DNA of 64,000 bases, from IMG/VR virus record IMGVR_UViG_3300027625_000002; one strand, given 5' to 3'. Made by a program: the position numbers and the translations under genes. The notes below the pieces were generated by a model that was given only the letters and a program-made list of their open reading frames with translations, was not told where the DNA came from and did no database searches. Positions within the stretch are counted from its first letter, which is position 1. Each line of letters starts with the position of its first letter. This stretch comes from a virus. This document shows, in pieces, positions 4,162 to 5,389 of the stretch.

Positions 4162-4229
4162 CTCACTCATCTTCTCGACGAGCAAGCCCAGCATACCCCA
4201 CAGCGCCGCGTGCCCAAAATCCACGCAAC
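4162..4229. repeat. direct repeat DR1a (~67 bp; duplicated 3' end of membrane-protein gene 5327..5713)
   Basis: Near-identical to 5325..5389 (1 indel, 1 mismatch); encodes ...GCVDFGHAALWGMLGLLVEKM in both copies. Confidence 0.85.
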
Positions 4230-4244
4230 CCCGCCCGGTCATCG

Positions 4245-4727
4245 CTAGCTCTCCATCTTCGGGTAGAAAATGACCTCGGTGCGTGCGCCGGCCACGCGCT
4301 CTTCTTCGGTCGGGAGCGACACATTGGCGAGTTTGACGTCTGTGACCCCCGCCGCGGCGGCGATGGCGTCTCTGCTTGGGCAGTCTTCGTTTCCCCATGC
4401 GTATCGAGGGGGACTGGTGAGCATGATGACGTCACCCCGAACGTCGATCTGCCACCCCTTCGGTTCCCATTTTTCGCGCCACTCGCACCACGGCTCGAAA
4501 AGATCGAGGACCCGACGCAGTTCCTCCAAGTCCCACTCCGAGTAATGCTCAAGCGCGTCGTTCACGGCCTTGCCGATGTCGCCGTCCCACGTCTCCTTAG
4601 CCTCGTCGAGGACGAACTCGGCGACCTCGGTGTCGCTCTTGTCGAGCCACCTGCGAACGTATTCTTCCCAATTCGCCGGAGCCCAGCACTTCCCCATCAC
4701 GTGTACTCGATCACTTCCGGGGGCCAC
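4245..4727 (-). CDS. hypothetical protein, family A (FEPWCEW-x5-WEPKGW / AAAAG motif)
   Basis: ORF track 160 aa; paralogous to 6999..7433 and 30206..30625. Confidence 0.6.
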   Translation of the reverse strand: MAPGSDRVHVMGKCWAPANWEEYVRRWLDKSDTEVAEFVLDEAKETWDGDIGKAVNDALEHYSEWDLEELRRVLDLFEPWCEWREKWEPKGWQIDVRGDVIMLTSPPRYAWGNEDCPSRDAIAAAAGVTDVKLANVSLPTEEERVAGARTEVIFYPKMES

Positions 4728-5107
4728 GTCTTGAGTTGAGCCTTATGCCCGTACTTGTCGGCGATGATGCCCTTCTCGACTCGTTTCGCCTTCTGGAGCA
4801 TCCGCATGTCCTCGTCCTCGATCCAGGCCTTGTCCTTGGCGTAAAAAACACTGCGGCCCTCATCTTCTGCCTCCCCAAGTTCCTCCTCCGTTGCCTCGGA
4901 GCCCATGAACTCAGGGAAATTCTCCTCGGCGATCTCCACGGCGTCGCCCTCATTGTCGGCGTACACGAGGATGCGGCTCATGTCGTATCCCTGTCCCATC
5001 CCGATGAGCCACGGGTCGCCGTCGCTCTCGTCGCCGTAGACATGGTCCACGTTAATCCACCCCTCGCCTCGGACGAGCGCGAACGTCTCTTCTTCCTTCT
5101 TCGACAT
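4697..5107 (-). CDS. hypothetical acidic protein
   Basis: ORF track 136 aa. Confidence 0.55.
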   Translation of the reverse strand: MSKKEEETFALVRGEGWINVDHVYGDESDGDPWLIGMGQGYDMSRILVYADNEGDAVEIAEENFPEFMGSEATEEELGEAEDEGRSVFYAKDKAWIEDEDMRMLQKAKRVEKGIIADKYGHKAQLKTWPPEVIEYT

Positions 5108-5123
5108 GGCGTCGCTCCCTTGC

Positions 5124-5309
5124 TCACGTCAGCTCTTGCAGCTCGCTCGTCAGCTCCGCCAGGCCCGCGAGCGCGTCTTTGATGTTCGCGCGAAAATCGC
5201 GCTCAGTTTCGCACGTCTCAGCGTTCTCGAGGTTCTCCCCGATTTCCACGAGCTTTGTGGTGAGCGCACCGATTTCCGCTTGCCTGTCTTCGAGTGATGC
5301 TTTCGCCAT
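5124..5309 (-). CDS. hypothetical small coiled-coil protein
   Basis: ORF track 61 aa. Confidence 0.45.
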   Translation of the reverse strand: MAKASLEDRQAEIGALTTKLVEIGENLENAETCETERDFRANIKDALAGLAELTSELQELT

Positions 5310-5324
5310 AGCTTTTCCTCATCT

Positions 5325-5389
5325 CCTCACATCTTCTCGACGAGCAAGCCCAGCATACCCCACAGCGCCGCGTGCCCAAAATCCACACA
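5325..5389. repeat. direct repeat DR1b
   Basis: Copy of 4162..4229 at the native 3' end of 5327..5713. Confidence 0.85.

Follow-up and report, generated by a model that had tools for sequence, protein, structure and literature searches.

The boundaries between the modules of phage genomes arise, in the mosaicism model of Hendrix and Hatfull, by illegitimate recombination, and recent exchanges are not targeted to gene ends (PMC1475703). In T4-type phages, one conserved composite motif, PeSL (early promoter, stem-loop, Shine-Dalgarno), is reused at many sites (PMC2839356; PMC4122927). Here we compare with these systems a locus on the virus record IMGVR_UViG_3300027625_000002, of which a stretch of 64,000 nucleotides was analysed (the window). 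In it the 3′ end of mem, the gene of a small membrane protein, is repeated behind the three genes that follow it, so that two direct copies bracket a cassette. On balance, we prefer to read this repeat as a scar left when sequences were joined illegitimately and out of register, between co-resident related genomes or by a template switch; the repeat would in turn allow later deletion.

The arrangement resembles a 'novel joint' of the mosaicism model in that a recent junction, untargeted as to gene ends, leaves a gene fragment, the neighbours have different histories, there is no specific junction sequence, and selection retains only products with intact flanking genes. It is unlike one in that the gene whose end the fragment repeats is still present, about 1.1 kb away, which makes a direct repeat, in that a single element family shows the pattern four times or more, and in that the host appears to be a giant, uncultivated and unclassified replicon rather than a characterised phage. 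With the PeSL cassettes (Arbiol et al. 2010) it shares cassettes of one to three ORFan genes in a hypervariable region, direct repeats of tens of base pairs, for one cassette of the window a close relative with a single repeat copy at the empty site, and the capacity for deletion of the cassette by homologous recombination between the repeats. Unlike PeSL, each repeat here is a unique duplicated gene end that has neither promoter nor terminator.

The duplicated 3′ end of mem

The real genes of this region all lie on the minus strand, with a G+C content at third codon positions (GC3) of 0.7-0.9, and are transcribed in the order mem, c61, c136, c150, the repeated end of mem, and g143. The first of them, mem (5327..5713, read from 5713 to 5327), encodes a CmpB-like membrane protein (PF06541) of 128 amino acids (aa) and is a backbone gene conserved across the element family. 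Its final 22 codons, the TGA stop and a GGAG ribosome-binding stretch make up the repeat. In the intact copy (5316..5395) the GGAG stretch serves the next gene, c61. The second copy (4153..4233) lies between the stop of c150 (4245) and the start of g143 (4149), and its 22 codons show two synonymous differences, for which it has the states CGG and TGC. A repeat search of the window gives an ungapped pair of 66 nt (4168-4233 and 5330-5395), identical at 64 of the 66 positions (97%, 2 mismatches) and spaced by 1162 bp. Self-comparison of the whole window by blastn lengthens the pair across a 1-nt indel to 4153-4230 and 5316-5392 (79 columns, 93.7% identity, E 6e-26), and returns just one more repeat of comparable strength in the 64 kb, at 7882-8030 and 9008-9156. 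The initial annotation had placed here a repeat made of the last 22 or so codons of 5327..5713 plus some downstream bases; both searches confirm its position, and the content is borne out, stop codon and GGAG stretch included.

The downstream copy is a non-functional, decaying relic of the mem 3′ end, left behind three genes. A 1-nt insertion shifts its stop, so that …EKM* becomes …EKMSEE*, and the new end falls 6 nt before the ATG of g143. This indel is present in all copies of the relic; that of strain L057 has in addition a frameshifting deletion of 2 nt, and in strain L007 a single-nucleotide polymorphism (SNP) flanks the relic. The relic is junk without a coding function, and through it g143 retains its native upstream context. 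A functional element was considered, as the minus strand of 4150-4244 holds a mini open reading frame (ORF) of 28 codons with a plausible Shine-Dalgarno sequence, starting 2 nt past the c150 stop, and two RNA hairpins (z -3.7). Both are probably meaningless, because the 2-nt deletion of L057 disrupts them, and Rfam finds nothing there. A decayed tandem paralog of mem was also rejected: the tandem paralogs of the distant relatives L047 and L049 are only about 78% identical (about 100 nt aligned in L049), and therefore do not explain a 22-codon fragment that is 97% identical. The chimeric ORF drawn earlier across the relic (4156..4398) exists mechanically, with 80 aa, and is not a gene, because its GC3 outside the relic is 0.49, against 0.79-0.86 for c150 and mem.

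The window comes from a metagenome-type assembly, and the repeats are points at which short-read graphs break, so that an assembler might have joined or duplicated sequence wrongly. Exact-sequence look-ups were made with mem and with g143; in each, 23 contigs were read, and over both together 11 distinct ones were displayed. The order mem-61-136-150-gap-143 stands on at least ten independently assembled metagenome contigs from different samples, projects and assemblers, the displayed sources that carry it being nine JGI metagenomes and one NCBI assembly. Samples such as JGI 3300027641, 3300009520 and 3300001356, and NCBI GCA_052916045.1, yielded the contigs L001-L010. Identity to the window is 99.8-99.99% for nine of the contigs and about 98-99% for L007. 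In L001, L007 and L057, the three that were checked, the copies are non-identical and have the same copy-to-copy differences. As the independent contigs agree, the copies differ (2 SNPs and the indel) and the relic varies by strain, an assembly artefact can be dismissed with something close to certainty. No variant without 4234..5318 was found among the near-identical contigs examined; all of them carry the cassette.

In more distant relatives, the order g89-g83-(g131)-mem-…-g106-g64 is conserved as a backbone, and the stretch between mem and g106 is variable. On contigs of 150-600 kb the slot after mem proves hypervariable. It is empty in L017 and L021, where g106 follows mem directly; it contains a 221-aa gene in L014 and an unrelated 138-aa gene (family Y) in L060 and L062. 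In L016 it holds a c136 homolog (56%) and then g123, which is 93.5% identical to that of the window while mem is merely 71% identical. A 143-aa gene of family Y comes after mem in L058, followed by a c136-like fragment, an IS1595 transposase and further genes, and also in L059 (truncated, ending before g106), where a c136-like fragment follows it. L023, whose contig stops before g106, has three g123-like genes, then c136 (66%) and c150 (53%). Given these differing contents, the slot is hypervariable, and c61-c136-c150, the relic, g143 and g123 all count among its occupants. In line with the initial annotation, the more distant relatives are without the three genes (L017, L021) or have another arrangement (L016). 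Absence of cassette 1 at exactly its own junction was not seen, since no site with mem directly followed by g143 turned up in the six contexts of mem homologs and three contexts of g143 homologs inspected. The 143-aa gene that stands behind mem in L058 is unrelated to g143. In the same contig (L058:5864-8435), the IS1595-family transposase and other genes separate N-terminal and C-terminal c136-like fragments.

The three bracketed genes are the set that had been listed earlier, except that the third most likely starts at ATG 4697 (150 aa), which is the gene call on every independent contig, and not at GTG 4727. The first, c61 (5124..5309, minus strand, 61 aa), is without a family match, and no homolog of it was seen in the relatives. 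The second, c136 (4697..5107, minus strand), encodes an acidic protein of 136 aa; it has homologs only in L007 (99%), L023 (66%) and L016 (56%), besides the fragments in L058 and L059, and just two homolog clusters in the database. The third, c150 (4245..4697, minus strand), is a paralog of g144 (6999-7433), with about 34-37% aa identity by BLASTP and MAFFT, and is partnered with c136 in L023 too. Structural comparison of the AlphaFold model of c150 (pLDDT 75) gave nothing significant, no PDB entry exceeding a TM of 0.3, and the model of c136 (pLDDT 34) is unusable. No Pfam domain was found in the proteins of either cassette, and PHROGs gave nothing except a family of unknown function for d68 of the second cassette (see below). 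The GC3 of the cassettes (0.73-0.81) is the same as that of the backbone, which points to related elements, not the host chromosome, as their donors. Beyond the relic, g143 (3718..4149, minus strand) is the first gene; its homologs elsewhere (44-50%) stand in unrelated contexts only. In one of these (L056:4354-6051, an unrelated virus-sorted contig), the g143 homolog lies between two genes of 216 aa whose common part is only a C-terminal transmembrane tail (51 nt, 84%), and which may be an in-frame duplication of a gene end. Other paralogs of the window are two adjacent genes for basic-tail proteins (10065-10382 and 10328-10606), and g130, which over 143 bp (6628-6770 against 37190-37332) shares 77.6% DNA identity with a 202-aa gene 30 kb off.

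A second cassette and further repeated gene ends

The other strong repeat of the window, also on the minus strand, is 149 bp long and 97.3% identical, has a spacing of 1126 bp, and spans the junction of g108 (9432→9106) and g182 (7983→7435). In copy B (9008..9156), 16 full codons and the stop form the end of g108, which is functional there, and are joined to a dead copy of the first 34 codons of g182; copy A (7882..8030) consists of a dead g108 3′ end and the functional 5′ end of g182 (7435-7983). The cassette between them (cassette 2, 8031..9007, minus strand) contains d93 (8610-8891), d68 (8403-8609) and d116/124 (8056-8430). Strain L007 is without cassette 2 exactly at the repeat: g108 abuts g182, and a single repeat copy is present. 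Three sites tell copies A and B apart in all strains, and at these the single copy of L007 is of the B type; the remaining A/B difference, a fourth, is a polymorphism of copy B specific to the window. Hence the absence of a repeat-bracketed cassette at its exact junction, which had been proposed as a check for cassette 1, is seen for its sister.

The presence and absence of cassette 2 could also reflect reversible shuffling, in which the gene-end repeat acts as a portable homology handle and a mini-circle of about 1.1 kb loops out and re-inserts by a Campbell-type crossover. Direct repeats of 67-149 bp do flank cassettes of one to three ORFans in a hyperplastic region, L007 has one repeat copy where cassette 2 is missing, and the allele-like differences between copies are what the integration of a circle from a diverged relative would leave. 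Moreover, PeSL mini-circles are experimentally documented in T4-type phages (PMC2839356). We nevertheless regard such shuffling as rather unlikely here. The one reused composite motif of PeSL is missing from the four repeats known (two are described below), which have no common motif, promoter or stem-loop element. The PeSL-like empty site with a single repeat copy is seen for cassette 2 in L007, whereas every near-identical contig examined carries cassette 1, which is fixed among them; in L023 c136-c150, and in L016 the c136 homolog, occur unattached to a duplicated mem end. Shuffling also leaves the origin of the first repeat-cassette-repeat structure unexplained. Cassette 2 was found alone as a unitig of 1063 bp (L054) bounded by repeat k-mers. 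This is a break of the de Bruijn graph at the repeats, uninformative on circles, and so provides no evidence of one.

A third repeated gene end lies just beyond position 1 of the window. In L001, the last 27 codons and the stop of the PcfJ gene (15698-15781 and 16090-16173) are repeated after the next gene, of 89 aa. The copies are 86.6% identical over the 82 nt aligned by blastn, and their codon differences are 7 synonymous against 3 non-synonymous. L005 and L008 are without this relic and differ in their downstream content. They were rejected as the relic-free parent of the scar: L008 is without a stretch of 1.27 kb, a loss that truncates a 208-aa gene, and both bear another allele of the 3′ end of the 89/91-aa gene. 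The fourth case is in L016, a distant relative (mem 71%), where a 75-aa gene has its first 17-18 codons repeated upstream of an inserted 95-aa gene (52 bp, 7824-7875 and 8204-8255); the differences between the copies are mostly synonymous. That three legible scars stand within about 10 kb in one lineage, and that one of them is polymorphic in nature, is mildly notable.

How the joints may have formed

The differences between the copies bear on where they came from. Counted at codon positions 1/2/3, they are 0/0/2 for cassette 1 (intact against relic), 2/3/8 for PcfJ (intact against relic), 1/1/7 for L016 (intact against copy) and 1/2/1 for the copies of cassette 2. Over the four scars, 18 of the 28 differences are thus at third positions (binomial P 8e-4 against 1/3; P = 0.04 against 0.46, the value expected if the relic alone drifts). 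From this bias we conclude that the copies represent alleles which diverged as functional genes in different lineages, and that recombination between lineages belongs to the history of the scars.

Exchange between lineages is evident in the region at large, where homologous allelic replacement is common. Strain L007 has, between flanks that are 100% identical, a 55%-identical allele of g123 (3289-3718 against L007:7128-7530); the breakpoints are at the g143 stop and near 3310, a clean allelic exchange of a single gene. The contrast in L016 noted above, a g123 (L016:6866-7237) far closer to that of the window than its mem is, has the same character. Strains with an identity of about 99.6-99.9% elsewhere have different versions of the last 35 or so nt of the 89/91-aa gene. 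Illegitimate events are seen as well. In the g89 gene of L007, a 117-bp segment (6365-6481) is replaced by 9 nt (L007:4472-4480), a net in-frame loss of 36 codons that shortens the called protein from 89 to 53 aa; L008 is without about 1.27 kb relative to L001, and the downstream sequence of L005 is different again.

Phage recombinases (λ Red, Rad52-like) can use short and slightly diverged homologies for both exchange and deletion (PMC2327257, PMC3945230). Homeologous, or relaxed homologous, recombination of that kind would explain how g123 was cleanly replaced and how cassette 2 may have been lost. It differs from the event sought here in that it acts at existing homology and does not create an out-of-register joint. 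No recombinase was identified among those ORFs of the window that were scanned.

For cassette 1, we propose the following course. A segment with its start within the 3′ end of some mem allele, and extending into g143, would have been joined just downstream of the c150 stop. The join would be non-homologous and out of register, either through an illegitimate crossover, for which two related, co-resident genomes would have had different genes behind mem, or through a template switch in replication. The product of such a join, mem-c61-c136-c150-[last 22 mem codons]-g143, is the order observed, and the copies carry synonymous, allele-type differences, so that they come from the mem alleles of different lineages. 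Thereafter the direct repeat may serve for loop-out deletion by homologous recombination. For cassette 2 the empty site exactly at the repeat is observed, and such a deletion is a possible origin of it. The initial annotation had taken the repeat for the footprint of insertion at a short homology, or of a cassette that can be lost again; as to the insertion, the repeat is more likely a consequence of the illegitimate join than the cause of an insertion.

The edges of the repeats are in keeping with this. In three of the four scars one edge is at a stop or start codon and the other is inside the gene, a pattern consistent with one illegitimate join between relatives that have this gene in common but not the gene next to it. 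That an edge stands at a gene boundary is explained by selection for flanking genes that are intact; with spacers of 10-20 nt, such selection gives the same edge pattern under any model. Microhomology at the joints is possible over at most 2-5 nt.

The same features may be read as a duplication of 67-149 bp of target made in situ, within one genome, when foreign DNA entered at a staggered break or by a double template switch (leaving the template past the gene end, copying the cassette and returning upstream), with allelic exchange later on. Cassette 2 speaks most for it, as a repeat across the g108/g182 junction with its edges inside genes is most simply a duplicated target, and the empty site of L007 equals that target; the scant microhomology and the common allelic replacement agree with it too. 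On the other hand, differences between the copies amount to 2.7-13% and favour third positions, so that a later allelic exchange would be needed at each of the four scars, and no donor context for the cassettes is at hand against which the switch points could be checked. We consider duplication in situ unlikely.

Several points weigh against the out-of-register join that we prefer. The search gave neither parent of cassette 1: on no contig does g143 come directly after mem, and on none does c150 have another sequence behind it. The third-position bias fits a join of two parents as well as a duplication in situ with replacement of one copy, and cannot separate them because allelic replacement is common here. 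Both repeat edges of cassette 2 are inside genes, and this requires two illegitimate joints or a double template switch. The B-type single copy in L007 fits a deletion and an ancestral state alike. Lastly, the near-equal spacing of the two cassettes (1162 and 1126 bp) is a coincidence that the model leaves unexplained.

A site-specific element would be a more familiar source of flanking repeats, be it an integrase-mobilised island with attL and attR, an integron-like cassette or a transposon with an unusually long target duplication. Integration into the 3′ end of a gene, with the end restored, is the classic pattern of integrative elements, and the direct repeats here would conform to it. As at att sites, the insert lies between two copies of a gene's 3′ end, and the gene that was the target is still whole. 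Unlike att-site elements, there is no integrase, the repeat differs from site to site, the cassette consists of only three tiny ORFan genes, and in cassette 2 a gene junction rather than a 3′ end is duplicated. The cassettes encode just proteins of 61-150 aa, without a Pfam domain or an informative PHROG match; none of these proteins has a recombinase domain, and no integrase domain was found among the proteins scanned, a subset of the window ORFs. The repeat search revealed no terminal inverted repeats, and no attC-like palindrome or inverted repeat at the cassette edges. Thus the marks of integron cassettes (attC, IntI with attI) are missing, as are those of transposons and insertion sequences (terminal inverted repeats, an own transposase, a short fixed duplication), the duplications here being 52, 79, 82 and 149 bp. 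To our knowledge, duplications of 52-149 bp far exceed those made at transposition targets. An attL/attR pair is equally at odds with the absence of a cassette recombinase and with cassette genes that stand in L016 and L023 without the repeat. Four unrelated repeats would, moreover, each require a recombinase of their own. A site-specific origin is therefore very improbable.

Nor is there a dedicated boundary signal, since the four repeats (repeat 1, repeat 2, PcfJ and L016) share no sequence and no common motif by self-blastn. In 2000-10500, matches to sigma-70-like promoters number 0, against 1.0 expected from shuffles, and terminator-like matches number 10, against 6.5 ± 2.6, i.e., show no excess; no Rfam family matches the cassette edges. 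On the reading preferred here, neither a dedicated recombinase nor a boundary signal is involved. Of the modular exchange between gene boundaries that the initial annotation had suggested, the exchange stands, in the g123 swap with its breakpoints at or near gene ends, and a dedicated signal at the boundaries does not. The closest description of the locus is the novel joint of the illegitimate-recombination model (PMC1475703), two of whose three marks are present. The non-functional gene fragment at the junction is the 22-codon mem relic, with its indel and strain-specific frameshift; the differing histories of the two sides are seen in g123 against mem in L016, in the g123 of L007 and in the allele-like copies. 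As for the third mark, no identifiable parental arrangement was found, whether mem directly before g143 or another context downstream of c150.

The host element and the meaning of the repeats

The window has 62.6% G+C and consists almost wholly of small ORFans on one strand. ARAGORN and Rfam place a transfer-messenger RNA (tmRNA, tag ANDNAFAPALAA) next to a tRNA-Met (34787-35266, minus strand); tmRNA and tRNA cargo is unusual and suggests a huge-phage-like element. A protein of 870 aa (48757-51369) carries a major-vault-protein shoulder (E 1.5e-29) and Vault_3 repeat domains, which are unexpected in a prokaryotic mobile element. An RNA-repair-like set (47540-48385, 52720-53517 and 54120-55544) comprises an RtcB ligase (E 7e-85), a weak RNA-ligase-1-like protein and a protein with a phosphoribosyltransferase domain. 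Also encoded in the window are an AAA ATPase, an S24/CI-like protein, a DNA methylase and a peptidoglycan-binding protein, and genes for ParB_N and PcfJ adjoin the region. Homologs of mem (44-83% identity) are found on contigs of up to 219, 279, 461 and 600 kb from peat and soil. The DNA of 3000-8000 has no match among the INPHARED phages, IMG/VR scans with c136 and d93 gave no relatives, and a scan of GTDB genomes with the mem alignment gave nothing. The element would thus seem to be giant, unclassified, phage-like and extrachromosomal. Elsewhere in the window an exact 20-nt motif containing a palindrome, TTTTGTAGCTACGTTGTAGC, flanks a 95-aa gene (57325-57344 and 57624-57643), with an inverted near-copy around 57550; these look like operator sites, not a recombination scar.

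A bolder possibility, and a quite unlikely one in our estimate, is that duplicated gene ends are self-made, site-private homology handles, by which small ORFan cassettes would be excised as circles of about 1.1 kb and re-enter any relative that has the same gene. If true, the handles would amount to a motif-free and recombinase-independent means of cassette exchange, and would explain both the recurring architecture and the presence and absence of cassette 2.

In closing, the scar is most likely an ordinary product of sloppy recombination and not a new mobile-cassette system. It provides a worked case for the illegitimate-recombination model of mosaicism, and reveals no new mechanism. What the locus offers is a clean, population-supported snapshot of how genes come and go where a very large uncultivated element is hypervariable and rich in ORFans. 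In the four examples, one of which is polymorphic between strains, the joints are so young that the gene pieces left behind remain legible. Repeat-bracketed cassettes of this kind are markers for gene flux in peat and soil metagenomes.

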